Source of the DNA: Sulfurihydrogenibium sp.
GTDB lineage: Bacteria; Aquificota; Aquificia; Aquificales; Hydrogenothermaceae
Length of the DNA stretch: 10,510 bases
Assembly: GCA_037442825.1 (NCBI GenBank)
Contig: JBBIPN010000045.1
Span: 1-10,510, forward strand
Direction: 5' to 3'
Shown here: positions 1 through 10,510 of the stretch, piece by piece
Position numbering within the stretch: position 1 is the first letter of the stretch
Layout of the letters: the number at the start of each line of letters is the position of its first letter
The notes under the pieces: generated by a model
The model's input: the letters and a program-made list of their open reading frames with translations, nothing else
The model's database searches: none
What the model was told of the DNA's origin: nothing
Made by a program: the position numbers and the translations under genes

Positions 1-66
1 ATATATTATGATATGGATGATATAGTAAAAAGAGCTTTAGAAGTATTTGAGGAGAGGGTAAGATAA
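1..66 (+). CDS. glf: UDP-galactopyranose mutase, C-terminal fragment (5'-truncated by window edge)
   Basis: Frame +1 reads IYYDMDDIVKRALEVFEERVR* (TAA at 64-66), matching the conserved Glf C-terminal motif Y-x-Y-Y-D/N-M-D/H-x-(V/I)-x-x-A-L. The stop overlaps the next ATG (TAATG). Only 21 codons are visible and the fragment is not in the ORF track. Confidence 0.75.
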   Translation: MYYDMDDIVKRALEVFEERVR

Positions 67-1085
67 TGTTAAATATATATAAAGACACTAAAGTTTATGT
101 AGCAGCTCCTGCTGCAGGTGCTACCGGAGGCCCAGAACTACTTCATCAATTAGCATATCATTTACGTAATTATTTAAATATAGCTACATATATGTTTTAT
201 TATCCTACTAACCATCCAAATCCAATTCATCCTGAATATAAAATTTACAATAATCCTTTTGTAAGAGAAATAGAAGATGATAAAGATAATATACTTATCG
301 TACCAGAAGTTAAGTCAGGTTTAGATTTTTTAGGAAAATATGAAAAGATACGAAAAATTATATGGTGGCTCAGTGTTGATAATTTTTATTTATCAACTGC
401 TCAAAACTATAAAAAAAATTTTTTTTCTAAATATGATATAAGCGAAATAGCTCTAAAAAAATTAAAAATACAATTAAATCTAAGAAAATTCGAAATGATT
501 GTAAATGTTGATTTTCATTTAGTTCAAAGTTTTTATGCTAAGGAACATTTAGAAGAAGCAGGTATTAGTAAAGAAAAAATACTTTATCTATCAGATTACT
601 TAAACAAAGATTTTCTTAGTATTCAAACTGATTTATCTAAAAAAGAAAACATAGTTGTATTTAATCCAAAAAAAGGATTTCTTTTCACCAAAAAAATAAT
701 TCAAGCAGCCCCAAATATGAAATTTGTACCATTGATAAATATGACAAGACAGCAAGTTATAGAAACGTTGCAGAAAGCAAAAGTTTATATAGATTTTGGA
801 AATCATCCTGGTAAAGATAGGATTCCGCGGGAAGCTGCTATTTTGGGTTGTTGCGTTATTACTGGTAAAAGAGGTTCTGCTGCTTATTTTGAAGATGTAG
901 CGATACCTGGAAGTTATAAATTTGAAGATAAAAAAGAAAATATACAAAAAATTATAGAAAAGATAAAAGACTGTTTGGAAAATTTTGAAGAAAAATATAA
1001 AGATTTTGATTATTATAGACAAGTCATAAAATATGAACCACAAAAATTTGTTAAAGATTTAAAGAAAATTTTTGTAAAAGTTTAA
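66..1085 (+). CDS. Putative GT-B fold glycosyltransferase of polysaccharide loci (possibly a galactofuranosyltransferase)
   Basis: 339-aa ORF with GAGGAG RBS at 49-54, coupled to glf. It has an N-terminal Gly-rich loop (ATGGPELLHQL) and a C-terminal YIDFGNHPGKDRIPREAAILGCCVIT motif, positioned like the GT4 EGFGLPxLEAMAxGxPVI motif. Galf specificity is inferred only from adjacency to glf. Confidence 0.65.
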   Translation: MLNIYKDTKVYVAAPAAGATGGPELLHQLAYHLRNYLNIATYMFYYPTNHPNPIHPEYKIYNNPFVREIEDDKDNILIVPEVKSGLDFLGKYEKIRKIIWWLSVDNFYLSTAQNYKKNFFSKYDISEIALKKLKIQLNLRKFEMIVNVDFHLVQSFYAKEHLEEAGISKEKILYLSDYLNKDFLSIQTDLSKKENIVVFNPKKGFLFTKKIIQAAPNMKFVPLINMTRQQVIETLQKAKVYIDFGNHPGKDRIPREAAILGCCVITGKRGSAAYFEDVAIPGSYKFEDKKENIQKIIEKIKDCLENFEEKYKDFDYYRQVIKYEPQKFVKDLKKIFVKV

Positions 1086-1352
1086 AAATAACGCCTAAAA
1101 CTTCCATCGTCATGCTTAATTAAACGGAATTTTTGCAAGCATAAGTACAAGGAAAGTTTGATATTTCAATAAAATTGGATAATCTTTTAATACATTTTTC
1201 TTTTCAATTAATTAGAAAATCAAGACATTATATTCTTTCTTTATTCACTCTGTATATAATTCAGTTTTTACTTACACGAATAAGAGAAAAGAATTTCTTT
1301 CGTTCAAAAAAGAATTGAAGTAATTAATTTGTTTTTGGAATTAATATATTAG

Positions 1353-1752
1353 CAATACGAATATCTATCCAAAAAACTTAAACTAGCAGATGCTATTTTA
1401 AAATACATAAATAAAAATCCTATTATAAAATCATTTATAGATTCAAAATTAAAGGAAATCGATACTTATATAGATAACTCACAAAAAGAAATTGTAGAAC
1501 TTGAATCTAAAATAAAAGATAGAAATTTTAAAATCTAAAAGACAAGCATCACAAATGGGTATTACTTTGCCCTCATAACCTGTTATTCCAAATGATAAAT
1601 ATAAACTTAAGAGATTCTTTATTGTTGCTATATTATTCATTAGTTCAACATTTATAGCTATTTTTATAGTATTACTAAGAGAATTAATAAACACAAAAAA
1701 CTCAAAGGTTAAATTAAGATTTAATTTGAAAAGAAAATTTTTAATTTTTTAA
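1353..1752 (+). pseudogene. wzz: Degraded Wzz-like polysaccharide chain-length determinant remnant
   Basis: Frame +3 at 1353-1538 gives a coiled-coil-like segment (KLADAILKYINKNPIIKSFIDSKLKEIDTYIDNSQKEIVELESKIK). Frame +1 at 1516-1752 gives KIEILKSKRQASQMGITLPS*PVIPNDKYKLKRFFIVAILFISSTFIAIFIVLLRELI, the Wzz-type Pro-rich/basic motif plus TM2. There is a frameshift near 1515, an in-frame TAA at 1576-1578, and no start codon. Confidence 0.6.
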
Positions 1753-1790
1753 TTATAATTTAATAGTAAAAATTTTTTAACAGGTTTTAG

Positions 1791-2468
1791 ATGAGAAAAT
1801 TAGTTATTATAAAGAGAATAAAAGACAACAATAACATTAACTTAGTGTATACTTTTTTAAAAAACAATAATATAAAAGTAGAAAACTTTTTTAAACATTT
1901 AAAAGAGTATGGAAAATTTGAATTTTATATTGATAAAGAAATTTTAGATAGTATAATCAAAGACCTATCAAACCTCGCAGAGATAGAAATAAATGATACT
2001 TCTCAAACAGAGATAAATAAAAGAGATTATGGTATTAACAATCAAATAAATAGTCCTTTTAGTTTTTTTGTTTTATCTTTTTTAGATATTTTTATTGTTT
2101 TAACATTTATAGAGATTACATTTAAAATTTTAAACCTTGATTATTTAATACTTAACTATTTAGGTGAAAATTTATCTCACTATTTTATAATAATACTAAA
2201 GCTTGCTTTTTCTTTTGTATATATTAAAGGCTTTTTAGATTTTATAAATTCAACACCTATTGGTTATTTATTCAAAGTTAAAATATACGGTTCTCAAACT
2301 AATATAATATCTACATTTCTAACACCTATAATAGGATTTTACTTAATAAAGTTAGATTCTAATACATTTAAACTTTTAGGTTTATTTTTGATAGTTTTTT
2401 ATATAGTTTCTGTATTTGTGACATTTAAATATCTTAGTCTTTCTTTAGAAAGAGATAAAGATTTATAA
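1791..2468 (+). CDS. Hypothetical membrane protein: soluble ~85-aa N-terminal domain plus ~4 TM helices, weakly RDD-like
   Basis: 225-aa ORF with an AGGT RBS-like motif at 1782-1785 and a hydrophobic C-terminal half. The segments FFVLSFLDIFIV and NSTPIGYLFKVKIY loosely resemble the RDD motifs (RxxAxxID; GxTxGKxxxxIxV). Confidence 0.6.
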   Translation: MRKLVIIKRIKDNNNINLVYTFLKNNNIKVENFFKHLKEYGKFEFYIDKEILDSIIKDLSNLAEIEINDTSQTEINKRDYGINNQINSPFSFFVLSFLDIFIVLTFIEITFKILNLDYLILNYLGENLSHYFIIILKLAFSFVYIKGFLDFINSTPIGYLFKVKIYGSQTNIISTFLTPIIGFYLIKLDSNTFKLLGLFLIVFYIVSVFVTFKYLSLSLERDKDL

Positions 2469-3597
2469 TTAATGTAATAAAATGAAATATGAAAATATAA
2501 CTCATATATTCGTAAACATTGTTAAACTTAAGTACAACAAAACCAAGATAGTAAGATATTAAGTATAAGTATATCAAAACTATAAACTTTTCTATAGCTA
2601 CGTTTGTTGAAAATATCAGTAAATTTATAAGTAATGGAAAGATAGATAAAATATAGTAAGGTAAAAATTCTGATGCTTCTAAAAATTTATCACCAAATAA
2701 AATTGAGAATACTTCTTTACCAAACAGATAACTAAACAATGATGAAGAAATTATAATAAAAATAACTAAAAGTATAGACTTAATTAGATAGCTTTTATAG
2801 TTTTCTTTATCTTTTGCTATCTTTACAAAGAAAACAGAAAAAAGTGTTATACATAGCCAGATAATAGCTTTGCCAAGTATAGATACAGAAGCAAATAAAC
2901 CAGCTGTATATGAATCAAAAACTCGTTTTATAAATATATCATCTGCATATATAAAAATACCTGTAGGTGATATTAACAAAAAACTTTTTATGATTTTTTT
3001 TATTGTTATAATCTCAACTTTACCAAAAATATTTTTATTTATATAAAAAAGTAAAACAGATATTAAGGAAACAGATATTAATGTAGATGCTAACGCTCCA
3101 TTTACACCAAAATTAAGACTTACTAAGATAAGTGCAAACACTAATCTTAATGAAAGCTCTAATGAATTAATTAAAGAGTATAGTCCAAATCTATTTTGTG
3201 ATTGTAAAAAACCCTTTTCTGTACTTATTAAAAATATAAAAAACCAAACTAAAGAAACAATAAAAAAACTACTTAAATCAGAAACATTTAAAAAAGATTT
3301 AAAAAAACTTGATAAAAAAATACCTACCAAAAAAGCAAACAGTCCAGCTACTAAAGCCATCAATCTTAAAAATCTAAGTACCTCATACTTTTTTATTTCA
3401 TTCTCTAAAACTTCTTTGATAGTTAAAGTAGGATAAACACTAGATAAAAACGATACACTAAGCATGAGAGAGTATAAAACCATAAATTCTCCATATTTTT
3501 CAGGTCCAAGACTTCTACTTACTGTAAAATGAAATACATATCCAAGGATATTAATATATAGAAACATTAAAGACAGAAAACTAAAATTTTTTATCAT
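2434..3597 (-). CDS. wzx: Oligosaccharide flippase (Wzx/MOP superfamily)
   Basis: 387-aa polytopic membrane protein with about 12 hydrophobic segments. It has the typical N-terminal pattern (NILGYVFHFTVSRSLGPEKYGEF) and the second-half pattern (DDIFIKRVFDSYTAGLFASVSILGK). Confidence 0.85.
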   Translation of the reverse strand: MIKNFSFLSLMFLYINILGYVFHFTVSRSLGPEKYGEFMVLYSLMLSVSFLSSVYPTLTIKEVLENEIKKYEVLRFLRLMALVAGLFAFLVGIFLSSFFKSFLNVSDLSSFFIVSLVWFFIFLISTEKGFLQSQNRFGLYSLINSLELSLRLVFALILVSLNFGVNGALASTLISVSLISVLLFYINKNIFGKVEIITIKKIIKSFLLISPTGIFIYADDIFIKRVFDSYTAGLFASVSILGKAIIWLCITLFSVFFVKIAKDKENYKSYLIKSILLVIFIIISSSLFSYLFGKEVFSILFGDKFLEASEFLPYYILSIFPLLINLLIFSTNVAIEKFIVLIYLYLISYYLGFVVLKFNNVYEYMSYIFIFHFITLIINLYLFLKKD

Positions 3598-4663
3598 TAA
3601 AAACCTTTAGTAAATATTTTTCGTACTGATCTGCTATAGTGTCCCATGTGTAGTTTTTTGCAAAATTTATAGCATTTAAAGACATTTTACTCAACAAATC
3701 ATTATTATTCCATACATACAATATTTTTTCTCTCAAATCTTTAACATTTTCTTTTTTAAAAGAGATACCAAAGCCACCTTCTACAGCATAGTTTAACTCG
3801 GGAATGTCAGAAACTATAACTGGGGTACCTACTGCTGCAGATTCTAAAACTACAACACCTTGACCTTCATACCTTGAAGGAACTATCAAAAATTTTGCAT
3901 TTTTAAGTATACTTATCTTATCTTCATTTGATACATATCCTATATATCTAATATTTTCTTTTGTTATCTTTAATTTATCTATGTCTTTTCCAGAACCAGC
4001 AATATATAGAGGTATATCTAAATCTTTAAAAGCTTCTAAAAGTATATCAATTCCTTTGTGGTAAAAATCTATCCTTCCTAAAAATAAACAGTAAAATTTA
4101 TTACTTTTATTAGCATCTTGGTATTCTAAAAATATTTCATCAATACCATTTGATATAACTACAGTATCTTTAATACCAAATTTCTTTTTGGATATCTCTG
4201 AAACTGTAATTATGTTATCGAACTTTTTAGGATATAAACTTTCAATATAGTAAAAAGGTAGACCAAATAATTTGTATCTTCTTAAAATGTTTTTTCCTTC
4301 TTTGTGGTGGGTTTGTAGTATTACTGTTTTTTTATCTTTTAGTTTATAACTAAACAATGGATTCCATGGTGCAAAATCTTCAACGATAATATTAAAATCT
4401 TTACAGTGTTGTTTTAAAAATCTCGTTCCATAAAAGGCATAGCTGAATGTACTTAAGATGTAGTTTTTTGAAATACCGATAAATTTATATTTAAAATTTT
4501 CATTAACGTTATAATCTATAGCTTTTGGATATTTACCACTTACGACAGTGATTTTATAACCTTTTTGTGATAATCTTTTATATATCTCATACACTCTAAC
4601 AGCTCCACCACCACCAACCCATGGATTATTTATATGATCGTATATTAGGTGTAAGATTTTCAT
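3581..4663 (-). CDS. Glycosyltransferase family 4 (GT-B, retaining)
   Basis: MKILHL..NPWVGGGGAVRVYEI N-terminus, FLGRI...KG, and the EX7E motif PSRYEGQGVVVLESAAVGTPVIVSD. ATGA overlap with the upstream gene. Confidence 0.92.
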   Translation of the reverse strand: MKILHLIYDHINNPWVGGGGAVRVYEIYKRLSQKGYKITVVSGKYPKAIDYNVNENFKYKFIGISKNYILSTFSYAFYGTRFLKQHCKDFNIIVEDFAPWNPLFSYKLKDKKTVILQTHHKEGKNILRRYKLFGLPFYYIESLYPKKFDNIITVSEISKKKFGIKDTVVISNGIDEIFLEYQDANKSNKFYCLFLGRIDFYHKGIDILLEAFKDLDIPLYIAGSGKDIDKLKITKENIRYIGYVSNEDKISILKNAKFLIVPSRYEGQGVVVLESAAVGTPVIVSDIPELNYAVEGGFGISFKKENVKDLREKILYVWNNNDLLSKMSLNAINFAKNYTWDTIADQYEKYLLKVFNDKKF

Positions 4664-5622
4664 TTTAATAAAGGTCTTAAGATTTTAATAGTTTTATATC
4701 CAAATAATGAAGAAAATAATATTATTAGTTTTAAAAATCCTTTTTTACCAGGTGAAAAATGTTTATAGTATTTCAAGTAAATATAAAAAGATTTCAATGA
4801 TAAATATTTATCTTTTCTTTTATTATATTCTATTAAATCATATATAACTTGTCTCTCATAATTGGTTAAACTTTTTTCTAAACTCTTTAACACTGAAACC
4901 AATATTAAAGAATGATTACTTAAAAAGTTATCGCCTTTCGTTAAAAAATACTTTAGTAGGTTTTTAAAATTAGCTTTAAAAGCTCCTGTTGTATTGCTAC
5001 CATGTAATCTATAATATATCAATTTTTCATCTAAAAACTTAACTTTACCTATTTTTGAAGCAACTAAATTGAGCCACCAATCATGATGAGGTATATTGTT
5101 TGGGAACGGTAAAGCATAATCAAGAAGCTTTCTGTTTATTAAAAAAGTACAACCAGGAAATCTACTTCCAAAAAGAAAACTTACAAAATCAGTATTTTTA
5201 TCAACTTTAATATAATCTATAAAACTATCGTATATAACTTTATCATTATCATCTATTATATAAGCATCTGATAAAACTATTAAATTATCTTCAATATTTT
5301 TATATAAAATATCTAATTTGTTAGGAGACCAGATATCATCTTGGTCTGACAATGCTATGAAATCTCCATTACATAAGCTTAAGGCTTTTTCAAAGTTCTT
5401 AACTACTCCAAGCTTTTTTTTGTTTATATAGTACTTTAGATTATTGTACTTTTTTGAATACTGATTTAATATTTCAGCTGTTTTATCTGTTGAAGCATCA
5501 TCACATACTATTACTTCAATATTTTCATAAGTTTGAGAAAATATTGAGTTCAACTGTTTAGATAAAAAATTTTCTCCATTATAAGTTGTCATTGCTATTG
5601 ATATTAATGGTTTTTCCATCAT
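4660..5622 (-). CDS. Glycosyltransferase family 2 (rhamnosyltransferase/RgpB-like subgroup)
   Basis: Motifs ISIAMTTYNGE, VCDDASTD, ALSDQDDIW, HHDWW and YRLHGSN are typical of this GT2 subgroup. The donor sugar is inferred. ATGA overlap with the upstream gene. Confidence 0.88.
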   Translation of the reverse strand: MMEKPLISIAMTTYNGENFLSKQLNSIFSQTYENIEVIVCDDASTDKTAEILNQYSKKYNNLKYYINKKKLGVVKNFEKALSLCNGDFIALSDQDDIWSPNKLDILYKNIEDNLIVLSDAYIIDDNDKVIYDSFIDYIKVDKNTDFVSFLFGSRFPGCTFLINRKLLDYALPFPNNIPHHDWWLNLVASKIGKVKFLDEKLIYYRLHGSNTTGAFKANFKNLLKYFLTKGDNFLSNHSLILVSVLKSLEKSLTNYERQVIYDLIEYNKRKDKYLSLKSFYIYLKYYKHFSPGKKGFLKLIILFSSLFGYKTIKILRPLLK

Positions 5623-6326
5623 CTAATTCTCTCAAATTTTAATTTCCAAACCATTATAGCGGCCTCTAATGCTATCTTTCTACTCATTTTAGAAGACCCT
5701 TCGTTTCTTTCGTAGAATATGATTGGTATTTCTGTTACTTTACATCCTATTTTTACTAATCTGTAAACCATCTCTATTTGAAAAGCATATCCATTAGATT
5801 TTATTTTATTTAAATCTATTTTTTCCAAACATTTTCTGCTATAGCATCTATAACCACTTGTAACATCTGATAAATTTTTTAGTTTAAGTATTGTAGTTGC
5901 ATACATGTTGGCAAATTTCGAAAGTAAAAGCCTTTTAAAATCCCAACCAACAACACTTATAGTCCCATTAATATACCTTGATCCTATTACTAAGTCATAT
6001 CCTTCTTTCATTTTTTCTATAAATTTTGCTATATCTTCTGGATTATGAGATAAATCACTGTCCATTTCAAAAAATATATCGTAATCTCTTTTTAATCCCC
6101 ATTTAAAACCTTCGATATAAGCTGTTCCAAGTCCAAGTTTAGCAGGTCTTTGAATTAAATATATCCTATTTGATCTATTCATCCAGCTTTTTATCTCTTC
6201 AACTGTTTTATCTTGTGAGTTATCATCTATAAATAATAAATCCACATCATGCTTTAAAAGTTTTGGTATAAGTTGATTTATATTTTTTTCTTCGTTATAA
6301 GTTGGTAATACTATTAAAATTCTCAT
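5619..6326 (-). CDS. Polyprenol-monophosphomannose synthase-like GT2 (Ppm1/DPM1 family)
   Basis: Motifs LPTYNE, IDDNSQDKT, RPAKLGLGTAYIEGF, EMDSDLSHNP, VIGSRY, DVTSGYR, SNGYAFQIEM and EIPIIFYERNEGSSKMS. The start was moved from 6332 to ATG 6326 (MRILIV) because AAGGT lies 6 nt upstream of it. Confidence 0.9.
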   Translation of the reverse strand: MRILIVLPTYNEEKNINQLIPKLLKHDVDLLFIDDNSQDKTVEEIKSWMNRSNRIYLIQRPAKLGLGTAYIEGFKWGLKRDYDIFFEMDSDLSHNPEDIAKFIEKMKEGYDLVIGSRYINGTISVVGWDFKRLLLSKFANMYATTILKLKNLSDVTSGYRCYSRKCLEKIDLNKIKSNGYAFQIEMVYRLVKIGCKVTEIPIIFYERNEGSSKMSRKIALEAAIMVWKLKFERIR

Positions 6327-7404
6327 TTGCATACCTTATAAATTCCTCTCTTGTTTTTACCCAGTTGAAGTTTTTAGCCCAGTTTATACAGTTTTGAGAC
6401 AATTTTTTATAAAAATCTTTATCTTTAAAAGATTTGATAATCATATCACAAGCTTCTTCTTTATTGTTTACTAAAAATCCAGTTTCTTCATCTTTTATGC
6501 TATCTATTAAACCTTTTACCTTAAAGCCTACTGCTGGTGTTCCAAAAGCATTTGCCTGTATAACTACCTGACCCCATCCTTCTCTAATACTTGGTACTAT
6601 AATAAAATGAGATTTTTTTAGATACTCTTTTTTTTTATCTTCATTTACATAACCTACAAACTCAATACTCTTTACATTTTTATACTTTTCTTTTAAATAC
6701 TCTAAAAGTGGACCAGTTCCAACCATTATAAGCTTTGAATTTTCTATTTGTTTTAAGACATGTAAAAATATCTTTATAGCTGATTCTGGATTTTTTGTTT
6801 TTTTCATTCTTCCAACATATACAAGTGTTAAGTTTTTGTCTTTTTCTGGCATTTCGTCTGAAACATAGTATTCAAGACCATTTGGTATTATTGTAACATC
6901 TTTAAATCCAAGTTTTTCTAAATCTTCTTTTGTAGATTGTGATACAGTTATTGTTTTTTTATTTTTATAAAATCTCAGTAGTACCTTTTCTAAAAATCTA
7001 AAGATGTAACCAACGTTACCAAGTTCTACATTCCAAAATTCTTCGTAAAGTTGATGAATTAGTAATACTGAGTTCTTTTTAAAAAATGTAAAAAATCCAA
7101 TACCGTTAAATTCATCTATTATTAAATAATCTTCTTTTTTATTTAAAGCATACAGAAAACCATAAAAATGAGTAGTAAATTCATTTCCTTTTCTTATGAA
7201 TTTTATACCATCAATAAATTCTTCTGAAGTTAAATTTTTAGCTTTTGATGAAAACCACTCTACATTAAAACCGCTATCTCTAAAGCCTTTAGCTATTTCA
7301 AAAGTGTAAACTTCTGCACCACCTTTTTCAGGATGTTTCACACATCTCCTATTTAAAATTAGAATGTTATTAATTTTTAAGCCATATATAAGCTTATTAA
7401 CCAT
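6295..7404 (-). CDS. Glycosyltransferase family 4 (GT-B, retaining)
   Basis: ILILNRRCVKHPEKGGAEVYTFEI N-terminus, YVGRMKKTK, and PSIREGWGQVVIQANAFGTPAVGF. The exact start is uncertain. Confidence 0.9.
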   Translation of the reverse strand: MVNKLIYGLKINNILILNRRCVKHPEKGGAEVYTFEIAKGFRDSGFNVEWFSSKAKNLTSEEFIDGIKFIRKGNEFTTHFYGFLYALNKKEDYLIIDEFNGIGFFTFFKKNSVLLIHQLYEEFWNVELGNVGYIFRFLEKVLLRFYKNKKTITVSQSTKEDLEKLGFKDVTIIPNGLEYYVSDEMPEKDKNLTLVYVGRMKKTKNPESAIKIFLHVLKQIENSKLIMVGTGPLLEYLKEKYKNVKSIEFVGYVNEDKKKEYLKKSHFIIVPSIREGWGQVVIQANAFGTPAVGFKVKGLIDSIKDEETGFLVNNKEEACDMIIKSFKDKDFYKKLSQNCINWAKNFNWVKTREEFIRYANENFNSITNL

Positions 7405-7946
7405 ATTACTGTTAATATTAAAATAAAACCTAAAGAAATTAGATTTATTCTATTTTTTTGAATCAGATAGTATAAAAATATTATAATACCTAAAAATGAA
7501 AGTATAGAAAGTAAACTCCAAAAAGTATTTGGAGTTCTATTAAATTTATCTAAACTTAGATATTCTTTTGTAAAATTAGCATCATTATGAGCTTTAATTA
7601 TGGCTGATTGGTTAATTGCAAAGTTTAAATCGTCTCTATATGGTTGATAAAAAGATCTTATTTGAAATAATGAAGATTTTAGTGTTTCATAACAGTATAG
7701 TTTTATAAAACTATCATCTGTGTTAACACATATGTTTTTAAGATTTTTAACAGATTCATTTACTATTTTTGAAAATGGTGTATATGCTAAAATTACTCTC
7801 TCATAGTAATCTATTGCCTGAATAAATTCGCCATTTTTATAACTATTTTCAGCTTTAGAAAAATTTTTGTACTGATAAAAAATATTTTTCACAAAAAAAG
7901 CAAGAATTAAAACAGTAAATATAAGTAGAAGTTTTTTTATATTCAT
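7377..7946 (-). CDS. Membrane-anchored TPR-like hypothetical protein
   Basis: 189 aa with an N-terminal TM/signal anchor, a TPR-like helix pair (AENSYKNGEFIQAIDYYERVI) and two C-terminal TM helices. ATGA-coupled to the upstream GT-C gene. Confidence 0.7.
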   Translation of the reverse strand: MNIKKLLLIFTVLILAFFVKNIFYQYKNFSKAENSYKNGEFIQAIDYYERVILAYTPFSKIVNESVKNLKNICVNTDDSFIKLYCYETLKSSLFQIRSFYQPYRDDLNFAINQSAIIKAHNDANFTKEYLSLDKFNRTPNTFWSLLSILSFLGIIIFLYYLIQKNRINLISLGFILILTVIWLISLYMA

Positions 7947-9730
7947 TTTTCTGCTTCCAAACTGTAAAAGTTTAGTTTATCGCTATTTTTCTGCTGTAAT
8001 TTAAAAAATATATCATACATCTCATTAGCTTTGATAATATATCCATTTTCTTCAAGTTTCTTTCCATAAAAAATATAAAAATTTGAAAAAACTCTACAAA
8101 GAGTTAAAGTATAGTAATCATCTGAATTATGATTTAAACAGTCTTGTAATAATGTTTTAAACAACTGTTCTTTTAAACCTAAAGAAGATATATCAAAATT
8201 ATTTTCACTATTAAGACTGTTTTTTTCTTTTGCCATATAAACTAATCCAACATATTTTACATCTAATACTTCATTAAAAACACTATCTTTTGGAAAACCA
8301 GAATTTAGAAAAATTCTATTATTTTTAGCATAATAAGTTAAATGATTGTTTACTAAAAATTCTCTGTAAATATTTTTGTATAAATCTATTGGTAAGCATC
8401 CCCTTGTGTATAGCTTATTATCTTCTATTCCATATTCTAAGGAGCACACATCATTTCTAAAATTATTTAAAACTTTTAAATACCAAATTCCAAACGAAAG
8501 ATTATCTCCTTGTGTTAAAAATAATGAGTTTTTTGGTAATGAAGCTAAAAAAGATTTGGTATAAGTATAAGGAACATAGTTATTTATAAAATTTTGATCT
8601 TGAAATCTTTGAACATAATTTAAAATGCCAGGAAAAATTACTGCAAATATAAAGATCTTTTTTGCTATATATAAATTTTTAGACTCTAAATAAACTACAA
8701 TCCTATAAACAGCTAATCCTATGAAAATAAAAGAAAAGAAGAACATTGGTAGATAGTACTGATGGCCTGATATATACCAATCTTTTAATTGAAGATTTTC
8801 ACCTGCTAATGTCATTTTTGCTAAAAAATATGAATATAAAAAGAAATTAAGTATAAAAATAGAAAATAATTTTTTGTTTTCTTTAAATAGTAAAAAAATA
8901 CCTAGTATTAAAAGTAAAATAAAAAAGTAATTTAAATTTAGTAAAAGTAATTTTGATACATTCAATAAAGGAAAAAGTAAAATATGAAAATCATTTTGAT
9001 ATACTGCACTATTTAAAGAATCCAAAGAAGAAGTACTATAATTTTTACGAAGATAATAATTTATAAATTCAGAAAAATTATTTATAGATGAATATTTAAT
9101 ACTATAGTCGTTTAAACTTCTAATTTTTAAATATCCAAAATTTAGTAGAAAAAAGAAAATCAAGATAGTAAAACCAATAAAGTAATCTCGCAAATTAAAA
9201 AATTTATTAAATAAAATTACTAAAATCAAACTTAAAAGTACAAACAAACCTGTATGGTGGTTTAGAGATATTAAACCAAATATTATTATAGATATGAAAA
9301 AATACTTTTCTTCTTTTGATATAAAGAACTTGAGAACGAAATATATAAATGAAGATATTAAAAAAAGATTTAATGTATAAAATTTTATTACTATAGACTG
9401 ACCAAAAAAAGAGTAAATTGATGATAGTAAAAATATAGCTATAAGAGATATATATCTAGGTATTTTAAGTAATATTAGTGTCTTTTTTAGTATAAATAAA
9501 GAAAGTAATGCAAATAAAACTGAAATTAATACCATTCTTTCTGAAATACTACCTATAGGAATAAATGATATAAATTTTAAAATCAAGGAATATAAAGAGT
9601 AACCAGAAGGATGTGCAATGCTAAGTGTAAAACCAATAGCTGAAAATTCAGCTCCATCGCCTGTTGAATATACAGGAAATGATAGAAAGATATATACAGT
9701 ACCTATAAAAATAAATAAAATATAAGTCAT
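7943..9730 (-). CDS. DUF2723 / TMEM260-like GT-C protein O-glycosyl(mannosyl)transferase
   Basis: After TM1 comes the family signature TGDGAEFSAIGFTLSIAHPSGYSLY (cf. GDSGELxxAAxxLGxAHPPGYPL). Later motifs are QSIVIKFYTLN, LISLNHHT and the periplasmic FLTQGDNLSFGIWY (cf. GDNxxFxLWY). About 11 TM segments are followed by a soluble C-terminal domain. The start was moved from TTG 9742 to ATG 9730, which overlaps the upstream stop (ATGA). Confidence 0.82.
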   Translation of the reverse strand: MTYILFIFIGTVYIFLSFPVYSTGDGAEFSAIGFTLSIAHPSGYSLYSLILKFISFIPIGSISERMVLISVLFALLSLFILKKTLILLKIPRYISLIAIFLLSSIYSFFGQSIVIKFYTLNLFLISSFIYFVLKFFISKEEKYFFISIIIFGLISLNHHTGLFVLLSLILVILFNKFFNLRDYFIGFTILIFFFLLNFGYLKIRSLNDYSIKYSSINNFSEFINYYLRKNYSTSSLDSLNSAVYQNDFHILLFPLLNVSKLLLLNLNYFFILLLILGIFLLFKENKKLFSIFILNFFLYSYFLAKMTLAGENLQLKDWYISGHQYYLPMFFFSFIFIGLAVYRIVVYLESKNLYIAKKIFIFAVIFPGILNYVQRFQDQNFINNYVPYTYTKSFLASLPKNSLFLTQGDNLSFGIWYLKVLNNFRNDVCSLEYGIEDNKLYTRGCLPIDLYKNIYREFLVNNHLTYYAKNNRIFLNSGFPKDSVFNEVLDVKYVGLVYMAKEKNSLNSENNFDISSLGLKEQLFKTLLQDCLNHNSDDYYTLTLCRVFSNFYIFYGKKLEENGYIIKANEMYDIFFKLQQKNSDKLNFYSLEAEK

Positions 9731-10152
9731 TCTACAGTACAAATAATAGCATTATTGTTTAAATTGCATTTTGCTTTATAATCACTTACAGTATTTATTT
9801 TGCCTATTATAGTTCCATCTGATATATTACCACCTTCTGCACATACTACATTACCAGTTATATTTATACTTAAATTGTATTCAAGCACATTAGATGTTCT
9901 ACAATTTTTTAAATCTATATTTGAAACATCTATAGATGTAGGAGTAGATGGATTTAAATCAATACAATAAGCTATTATATCTTTAGCACATGCATTTGTT
10001 ATAGGCAAAGCAAAACTGCTTACTTTTGATTTATTTTGATATTTTATATATATAGGTATTGCCATAGATGAAAGTATAGATATAATCGCTATAACGATTA
10101 TAAGTTCTATTAAAGTGAAGCCGGCCAAAGACCGGCTTTTTTCAGATATCAT
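9727..10152 (-). CDS. Type IV pilin-like protein (second, probably minor, pilin) with class III signal peptide
   Basis: MISEKSRSLAG|FTLIELIIVIAIISILSSMAIP gives a prepilin peptidase site with E5. The protein has 6 Cys. The RBS TAAGGTG overlaps the upstream stop codon. Confidence 0.92.
   Translation of the reverse strand: MISEKSRSLAGFTLIELIIVIAIISILSSMAIPIYIKYQNKSKVSSFALPITNACAKDIIAYCIDLNPSTPTSIDVSNIDLKNCRTSNVLEYNLSINITGNVVCAEGGNISDGTIIGKINTVSDYKAKCNLNNNAIICTVE
10116..10142. terminator. GC-rich hairpin, candidate bidirectional/leaky intrinsic terminator downstream of the major pilin
   Basis: Perfect 7-bp inverted repeat AAGCCGG (10118-10124) / CCGGCTT (10132-10138). On the minus-strand RNA it extends to AAGCCGGUC-UUU-GGCCGGCUU, followed by CACUUUA. 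On the plus strand it ends in T6 (10137-10142). It lies about 24 nt after the pilin stop codon. Confidence 0.6.
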
Positions 10153-10161
10153 GTCAACACC

Positions 10162-10510
10162 TTATTTAACTGTACACTTAATTCCCGTTGTAGTAGCATA
10201 ACATTCAGCAGTATAATCACTAACGCCAGCAAGTCGTGCTGTAACTGTTCCTCCTGATGAGACTGTTCCATCGCTACCACATGTTGCAGCTGTTACAGTT
10301 AGTGTCACATTTCCTCCTGGAGTACTTTGAGTAGTAGCGCAGTTTTGTAAAGTGGCTGGTGTTGTTGCACCAGGATTTTCTGTACAGTAAGCTACCATAT
10401 CCATTAAACATCCTCTTGCTATAGGTTCAGCATAAGAACTTACTCTTGCTTTTTGTTGGTACTTCATGTACTGTGGTATTGCTATTGATGCTAAGATAGC
10501 AATAATAGCA
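10162..10510 (-). CDS. pilA: Type IV major pilin (5'-truncated by window edge)
   Basis: The frame is open upstream of the ORF-track Met (10467) to the window edge and reads AIIAILASIAIPQYMKYQQKARVS, the type IVa pilin alpha-1 helix. It has 6 Cys and is first in the visible operon, followed by a hairpin. Higher GC and the hairpin are consistent with a highly expressed major subunit; 'major' is an inference. Confidence 0.85.
   Translation of the reverse strand, partial: AIIAILASIAIPQYMKYQQKARVSSYAEPIARGCLMDMVAYCTENPGATTPATLQNCATTQSTPGGNVTLTVTAATCGSDGTVSSGGTVTARLAGVSDYTAECYATTTGIKCTVK

Follow-up and report, generated by a model that had tools for sequence, protein, structure and literature searches.

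Glycosylation of type IV pilins by a GT-C glycosyltransferase encoded behind pilA is already known from TfpW of Pseudomonas aeruginosa group IV, a membrane transferase with a lipid-linked donor, the loci of which carry the accessory gene tfpX in some hosts and sometimes have donor genes clustered with pilA–tfpW (10.1101/2020.04.19.049825, in its available text). Periplasmic transfer of a lipid-linked glycan to pilin is also performed by Wzy_C-type O-oligosaccharyltransferases (TfpO/PilO, TfpM, PglS and PglL), whose pilin-specific classes are encoded near their substrate (PMC12645811, available sections). In animals, TMEM260 (CAZy family GT117, PF11028; PDB 9RQL/9RQM/9RQN; PMC10214176) transfers a single, unextended mannose to IPT domains, and its C-terminal five-helix TPR domain (the fingers) recruits the acceptor (10.64898/2026.03.17.711096). 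Distant bacterial homologues of TMEM260 are said to exist, with nothing further in the available part of that report (PMC10214176), and bacteria go unmentioned in the available text of the structure preprint (10.64898/2026.03.17.711096). Here we describe a stretch of 10,510 nucleotides from Sulfurihydrogenibium sp. (contig JBBIPN010000045.1, positions 1–10,510; hereafter the window), which is the entire contig C45 of a 1.35-Mb, 99%-complete assembly (G000). From its sequence, we lean, with reserve, towards reading its operon as a dedicated type IV pilin O-glycosylation system in which a bacterial TMEM260/GT117 transferase would move an oligosaccharide in one step from polyprenyl monophosphate. 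What the sequences show is which genes are present, to which families they belong, that the catalytic residues are conserved, that the genes co-occur and that the occupants of the slot are exchanged; new at this locus are the near-complete co-occurrence of the whole cassette and a three-way exchange of enzymes in one slot behind the pilins.

Nine open reading frames (ORFs), all on the minus strand and spanning 10510 down to 2434, were found where a preliminary description of this DNA had placed them, and Pfam agreed with its names for the pilin, DUF2723, GT4, GT2, GT2, GT4 and flippase ORFs:

10162..10510, minus strand: major type IVa pilin, the likely acceptor; 5' end cut by the contig end and continued on contig C123
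9727..10152, minus strand: second pilin, 141 residues, with Pfam N_methyl (prepilin N-methyl motif)
7943..9730, minus strand: TMEM260/GT117-family GT-C, 595 residues, with a PF11028 match
7377..7946, minus strand: membrane partner without family name, 189 residues, all-helical in its structure model
6295..7404, minus strand: GT4a glycosyltransferase (Pfam GT4)
5619..6326, minus strand: polyprenyl-phosphate sugar synthase-like GT2, Ppm1-like (Pfam GT2; start at 6326 or 6332)
4660..5622, minus strand: GT2 glycosyltransferase at a variable position (Pfam GT2)
3581..4663, minus strand: GT4b glycosyltransferase (Pfam GT4)
2434..3597, minus strand: Wzx-type flippase-like protein (Pfam Polysacc_synt, 28.7 bits, barely above the 28.2 cut-off)

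The ATGA overlaps at 9727–9730, 7943–7946, 5619–5622 and 4660–4663 read as described. The other junctions, given earlier as overlaps of 17–32 bp, measure 28, 32 and 17 bp, with 38 bp in place of 32 if the Ppm1-like gene starts at 6332 and not at the ATG at 6326. The absence of intergenic gaps holds for the junctions downstream of the pilins but not between the two pilins, which are separated by 9 nt (10153–10161). C123 overlaps the last 202 nt of the window at 99% and carries the major-pilin leader, the N-methyl motif and two minor pilins; together with pilY1 on C72, a prepilin peptidase and PilB/PilT-type ATPases elsewhere in the genome, this identifies the main type IVa pilin locus. The globular domain of the major pilin is 27% Ser + Thr. 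The second pilin, which is found too in relatives without GT117, is a possible further acceptor. The assembly break lies inside the major pilin, where C123:1–202 and window positions 10309–10510 differ by two mismatches, each an amino-acid change, hinting at pilin variation in the population.

Assignment of the 7943–9730 protein to the DUF2723/TMEM260 family of GT-C enzymes, as first proposed, was confirmed by PF11028 (36.7 bits versus a cut-off of 24.2, E 4.6e-9), by a phmmer search against PDB sequences, in which human TMEM260 (9rql; E 1.2e-17 over residues 5–431) was the sole match at E ≤ 1, and by the GT-C fold of its model. This AlphaFold model, built from 110 sequences with a predicted local distance difference test score (pLDDT) of 95.6, comprises a membrane GT-C core, a Rossmann-like periplasmic domain and a short C-terminal helical portion. 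Its structural matches were led by ArnT (Z 26.4, root-mean-square deviation 5.5, 432 residues aligned), with ALG12, AglB, Pmt2, STT3 and PglB at Z 23–26; the top 20 were membrane GT-C-like folds (Z 12.8–26.4), and the next match had Z 7.6. TMEM260 was absent from both structure-search lists; the structural comparison suggested in the preliminary description thus supports the GT-C fold, while the likeness to TMEM260 itself rests on sequence. The protein matched no NCBIfam family, no Wzy_C domain (PF04932) at E ≤ 0.01, the genome's Wzy_C gene being on C26, and no STT3 domain (PF02516/PF21436), which was likewise not found elsewhere in the genome.

In human TMEM260, D52, H67, R264, Y267 and D441 are essential, D441 being the base, according to the available text of the structure preprint (10.64898/2026.03.17.711096). 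They align to D25, H40, R228, Y231 and D409, which are invariant in 18/18 Aquificota alignment rows:

9656..9658, minus strand: Asp25, aligned by sequence to human D52 (donor binding, essential in the human enzyme)
9611..9613, minus strand: His40, aligned by sequence to human H67 (essential)
9038..9049, minus strand: Arg228 and Tyr231, corresponding to human R264 and Y267 (donor-loading loop, phosphate and sugar binding, essential)
8504..8506, minus strand: Asp409, aligned by sequence to human D441

The general base is likely Asp409. The Asp of the GDGAE motif, put forward earlier as the residue to mutate, is Asp25; it stands as an aligned, essential donor-binding residue, but not as the likely base. 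After the base, 187 residues follow here versus 266 in the human protein, so that the TPR fingers are shortened; the model has three helices after residue 539, and no TPR family of Pfam matched. The IPT acceptor and the human sequon define the animal pathway, not the protein family. An IPT/TIG domain (PF01833) was found in 0/5 GT117 genomes searched, and the acceptor must therefore differ from human IPT domains; the core of the human sequon pattern was found in 0 ORFs of this genome. A GG-x-V-T-L motif in the major pilin is similar to that core but one residue shorter, and its enrichment (12/15 versus 4/9) was not significant at p 0.09, which leaves it as a mere lead.

The partner encoded at 7377–7946 has one N-terminal and two C-terminal hydrophobic helices, a helical-repeat middle and the invariant cysteines Cys73 and Cys85, and its model is all-helical (pLDDT 93.5). 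No Pfam or NCBIfam family matched its 189 residues, and a fold search returned only designed and natural helical repeats, with a best Z of 12.5 that is within the range of common helical arrangements. The term "TPR-like" given to it earlier is hence backed by the all-helical model and generic helical-repeat matches, but not by either family database. Profile comparison with the GT117 C-terminus was not significant. Unnamed look-alike clusters of the partner (scores 0.95–0.96) were commonest in Myxococcota.

Occurrence was surveyed in 178 genomes of the phylum Aquificota. PF11028 scored above its cut-off in 20 of them, in single copy each and across five genera; four matches below the cut-off, in genus g21, stand outside these 20. 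A pilin lies at most 1 kb upstream on the same strand in 20/20 carriers (G089 among them), so that the linkage claimed from this one genome is conserved in others. The gene order recurs across Aquificales at 27–38% GT117 identity (one close relative, the single locus given by a one-protein scan of a collection of genome contigs, has 79%), which makes the observation more than chance. By best-BLAST label, the 19 other loci contain the partner in 17, Ppm1 in 15, the flippase in 15, GT4a in 14, GT4b in 14 and the GT2 in 1, with GT4 or GT9 following the partner in most. Genome-wide, the partner was found in 19 of the 178 genomes as strong hits plus one weak hit (G016), the Ppm1 orthologue in 20, the flippase in 19 and GT4b in 19; the respective numbers among the 20 GT117 genomes are 18, 18, 18 and 17, GT4b having been lost in G116. 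The genomes counted outside the 20 are two fragmented assemblies, G110 and G138; in the latter, part of a GT117 lies at the end of a contig. Because GT117 loci were the source of the partner model, only absence elsewhere and G138 count as independent for the partner. In G089 and G090, Ppm1, the flippase and GT4b are kept on other contigs or far along the contig from the pilin locus, which argues for a shared function beyond synteny. In G134 (L008:1–999, a 1.6-kb contig), GT117 is apparently split into two ORFs behind a pilin, through either an assembly error or a pseudogene.

The slot behind the pilins is also used by other glycosyltransferases. Among 39 pilin loci from genomes without GT117 (a fortieth stretch being that of G138), plus loci picked for STT3 near a pilin, an STT3/PglB-type enzyme is directly beside the same pilin pair in 19 genomes (PF21436 in 8/8 scanned), which were selected for this adjacency from 59 STT3 genomes, the others having STT3 elsewhere or on broken contigs. 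A Maf protein lies beside the pair, converging on the pilins, in four:

L068, L070, L072, L076, L077, L090, L097, L102, L183–L191, L064 and L071: STT3 beside the major pilin
L067:2317–4242, L074:2404–4338, L098:9869–11917 and L195:3–980: Maf slot loci

Taken by itself, STT3 next to the major pilin is a candidate system for N-linked glycosylation of pilin. Across the survey, STT3 occurs in 59/178 genomes and is common to only 2/20 GT117 genomes versus 6.6 expected (Fisher p 0.014, kin not independent); in these two, GT117 occupies the pilin slot. Genus g8 holds GT117 (G116), STT3 (G114, G115) or neither. Maf is not exclusive genome-wide, being found in five GT117 genomes, with none listed at the GT117 locus, as expected because it is a flagellin enzyme (PMC12645811, available sections). 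The Maf-slot genomes mostly have a second Maf elsewhere, and a Maf acting on pilin would be unusual. In other relatives the slot is empty, and in G084 the convergent RDD-like gene that closes the cassette of the window abuts the second pilin, with no cassette in between. In the head of homologous major pilins, other pilin subtypes being left out, Ser + Thr averages 0.232 with GT117 (n=15), 0.159 with an empty slot (n=9; p 0.0003, or p 0.03 on genus means) and 0.212 beside Maf (n=3), G043 being classed as Maf-adjacent and not as an empty slot; the comparison over all pilins gives 0.241 versus 0.190. This enrichment fits glycosylation and cannot tell O- from N-linkage. Family membership, the linkage in 20/20 carriers and the occurrence of STT3 and Maf in the same slot of relatives together support the reading as pilin glycosylation put forward in the preliminary description. 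A 988-residue protein of G035 (L086:1695–4661), with a C-terminal glycosyltransferase-like domain and directly following a pilin with 28% Ser + Thr, is a possible fourth occupant, and two genomes of family f5 have proteins of ~650 residues without a Pfam family (L088:2278–4257, L094:2318–4264) converging on the pilin pair.

Beyond Aquificota, a metagenome profile scan was analysed through 79 loci, taken from the best 80 of 380 confirmed. The partner is present in 10 of the 79; a pilin lies directly upstream in eight of these, and the other two have <300 nt upstream. The 69 partner-less loci, many with short flanks, have an adjacent pilin in only four (L113, L114, L127 and L176, two of them fragments). 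Partner-bearing enzymes form one clade of 28 rows (support 99 in a tree computed by FastTree only), which mixes Aquificales with loci whose partners are 99–100% identical to proteins clustered with Thermodesulfovibrio names and which carry an Aquificales-type major pilin; joint movement of pilin, enzyme and partner from phylum to phylum is thus apparent. Linkage of DUF2723 proteins to pilins held throughout the Aquificota carriers, but a pilin is missing from the surroundings of most GT117 genes sampled in other bacteria: the linkage characterises this clade and a few further branches, and bacterial GT117 in general does not share it. Pilin-less GT117 genes that neighbour a Ppm1-like gene or form tandem arrays with two to four copies (L130, L131, L117, L143, L170, L173) imply that other acceptors exist.

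The Ppm1-like GT2 had the archaeal dolichol-phosphate mannose (DPM) synthase 5mlz as its best PDB match (E 1.2e-31), compared with E of about 1e-8 to 3e-9 for GtrB/ArnC, and lacks C-terminal membrane helices; it is closest to DPM synthase, as the earlier name Ppm1/DPM1-like implied. ManC is present in the genome, and with this neighbour it is compatible with mannose transfer from polyprenyl-P-mannose to Ser/Thr. The phosphoglycosyl transferase family PF02397 was not found in the genome; WecA-type PF00953 was not searched for. As regards the cassette content described earlier, transferase, Ppm1-like gene, flippase and GT4 recur, but the GT2 at 4660–5622 is not a conserved part: a GT2 stands there at only 1/19 other loci, and an S-adenosylmethionine (SAM) methyltransferase in 6/6 scanned. 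GT9 replaces GT4a in G137 and G090. Such variation among GT2, methyltransferase and GT9 is what a diversifying surface glycan would show. In G137 (L026:2296–6024), the cassette also encodes a nucleotidyltransferase–aminotransferase fusion, together with a methyltransferase and a CDP-alcohol phosphotransferase, a content that suggests phospho-substitution of the glycan. In G109 (L041:9581–14510), a divergent GT117 stands behind two pilins with neither partner nor Ppm1, and convergent DprE2-, DprE1- and DPPR-synthase-like genes face it, so that this GT117 is possibly arabinofuranosylating. The case is only suggestive, because it is single and DprE1-like genes are likewise found in 10 genomes that lack GT117.

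Set against the described systems, the enzyme shares with human TMEM260 the sequence family, the GT-C core with Rossmann-like domain, the five essential residues and a predicted polyprenyl-monophosphate donor. It differs in the residue at the R355 position, the shortened TPR, the separately co-encoded helical partner, the lack of an IPT-domain acceptor among the genomes searched, and GT4/GT2/flippase genes that point to a longer glycan. With TfpW it shares its nature as a membrane transferase, the position behind the pilin gene, a predicted lipid-linked donor, an accessory gene and clustered donor genes (both seen with TfpW in some cases) and, in G109, the same DprE1/DprE2 pathway beside it. 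As described in the available text, TfpW is set apart in that it polymerises D-arabinofuranose itself (10.1101/2020.04.19.049825), whereas the window has a DPM-synthase-like GT2, GT4s and a Wzx-type flippase, and a DprE1-like query at E ≤ 1e-30 found nothing in this genome. The Wzy_C-type enzymes have an O-antigen-ligase domain that the GT117 protein does not match, TfpO and TfpM acceptors end in Ser/Thr unlike the pilins here (PMC12645811, available sections), and the operon has no initiating phosphoglycosyl transferase. The N-oligosaccharyltransferases STT3/PglB/AglB share the GT-C fold and the slot behind the same pilins but belong to a different Pfam family. In Lactococcus lactis, an oligosaccharide started by a GT2 on undecaprenyl monophosphate is proposed to be flipped and moved by a GT-C (WpsA/B–WpsG–WpsJ), in this case to a rhamnan cell-wall polysaccharide, not a protein (PMC7476776, available text).

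We therefore propose a mechanism in conditional form. GT4 and GT2 enzymes use nucleotide sugars. On the inner side of the membrane, the Ppm1-like GT2 would charge polyprenyl monophosphate with a single sugar, perhaps mannose taken from GDP-mannose, and the two GT4s together with the enzyme at the variable position (here a GT2, in most relatives a methyltransferase) would extend and tailor the glycan on the lipid, before flipping, because nucleotide-sugar enzymes cannot work in the periplasm. The Wzx-type protein would then flip the lipid-linked glycan. GT117 would hold this donor through D25/H40/R228/Y231, D409 would deprotonate a Ser/Thr in the periplasmic head of the membrane-anchored pilin, and the glycan would pass to the pilin in one step. 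The small helical partner might aid pilin recruitment, compensating for a periplasmic region that falls about 80 residues short of the human one. That pilin is the acceptor of GT117 we consider quite probable. We entertain only tentatively, as a proposal that would more readily fail than hold, the fuller picture of a class of bacterial pilin glycosylation not described before: a two-subunit GT117, with the partner as acceptor-binding fingers, that transfers a tailored oligosaccharide en bloc from polyprenyl monophosphate, with GT117, STT3 and Maf as three unrelated enzyme classes swapped in one slot and moving with the pilin between hot-spring phyla, as expected of an anti-phage coat. As to purpose, we can but guess at phage masking, adhesion or stability in hot water; pilin glycans are reported to protect P. 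aeruginosa from phage (10.1101/150227, available text).

Several observations weigh against this reading. Human TMEM260 transfers one mannose only, and its R355, which contacts mannose and as R355A retains about 20% activity (10.64898/2026.03.17.711096, available text), is Gln in 18/18 Aquificota proteins and Arg in only 23/92 other rows. Comparison of the partner with TPR gave a non-significant hhalign probability of 2.8%. Three other PMT_2-type GT-Cs and the Wzy_C protein of this genome could use the same lipid donor. Ser + Thr is equally raised beside STT3 (0.220, n=10; p 0.33 versus GT117), N-x-S/T counts do not separate the slot classes (STT3 2.6 versus GT117 2.1, p 0.17), and GT117 and empty-slot pilins are compared without a within-genus contrast. 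The 20 carriers come from five genera, and kin are not independent. In the metagenomes, a pilin is adjacent or within about 0.5 kb in only 12/79 GT117 loci, eight of these partner-bearing, and the Thermodesulfovibrio-like L105, L108, L110 and L111 have GT117 and partner without adjacent sugar genes.

Some of this evidence would suit an enzyme that adds a single sugar from polyprenyl-P-sugar to pilin, the GT4, GT2 and methyltransferase genes making a separate or optional product. The unextended mannose of the human enzyme, minimal loci with only pilin, GT117 and partner (G090, L105, L108, L111), the loss of GT4b in G116 and the pairing of GT117 with a monosaccharide (arabinofuranose-type) donor pathway in G109 all speak for it; nevertheless, only GT117-cassette genomes have GT4b and the Wzx-type flippase, which persist even with a split operon, and the partner is followed by a GT4 or GT9 in most loci, and we consider it unlikely. 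It appears somewhat more improbable still that GT117 O-glycosylates other envelope proteins (minor pilins, PilY1, secretin or a general set) and that the pilus locus is incidental. Most sampled bacterial GT117 genes have no pilin neighbour, the gene is single-copy, and minor pilins and pilY1 are directly upstream in many loci, but GT117 and partner are accompanied by the Aquificales-type major pilin in Thermodesulfovibrio-like loci, the major pilin adjoins the cassette in seven g13 genomes in which the minor pilins do not, and major pilins are Ser/Thr-richer where the enzyme is present. Lastly, the cassette might decorate a lipid or polysaccharide, such as a lipopolysaccharide side branch, like three-component GT2/flippase/GT-C systems, whose gene content it matches (PMC7476776, available text); ArnT and ALG12 as top structural matches, in a library without TMEM260, and a wzz remnant with another possible glycosyltransferase at the left of the window point the same way. 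This we regard as very improbable: the one family member that has been characterised modifies protein, and the Asp with which it activates the acceptor is invariant here, the left neighbours vary between genomes (the pilQ operon in g13) while the pilin is constant, and it is protein glycosyltransferases that take the place of GT117 in the slot.

Databases already label such proteins "glycosyltransferase family 117", and no bacterial GT117 substrate was found described in the literature searched, outside which most subscription papers lie. If pilin O-glycosylation by GT117 is correct, pilin would be the first substrate found for a bacterial TMEM260/GT117 member, and pilin glycosylation would gain an enzyme class in addition to the Wzy_C enzymes and TfpW. 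The system would further provide a small, thermostable, one-operon model of an enzyme that, when lost in humans, leads to a congenital disorder, and possibly a tool for O-glycosylation from monophosphate-linked donors. With GT117, STT3 and Maf replacing one another behind a single pilin, Aquificota lend themselves to comparing how O-linked, N-linked and cytoplasmic routes serve one fibre. Family members occur in cultured strains (Hydrogenobacter thermophilus TK-6 is named as the source of a partner homologue and Thermodesulfovibrio yellowstonii as that of a GT117 homologue), which makes the reading accessible to direct test on pili.

At its downstream end, the cassette is bounded by a convergent gene:

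1791..2468, plus strand: RDD-like membrane gene, cassette boundary (atlas score 0.85, a lead only)

This gene faces the cassette in 12/19 related loci and follows pilQ in genus g13, and may be an unrecognised pilus gene. Further left, positions 1383–1710 (plus strand) hold the remnant of a wzz chain-length gene, which carries an internal stop and is broken into two pieces that differ in frame; these are 55–67% identical to an intact Wzz at the same place in G136. A 339-residue ORF at 66–1085 (plus strand), with no Pfam or NCBIfam match and a GT-B-like C-terminal motif recognised by eye, is probably the end of a separate surface-polysaccharide cluster.

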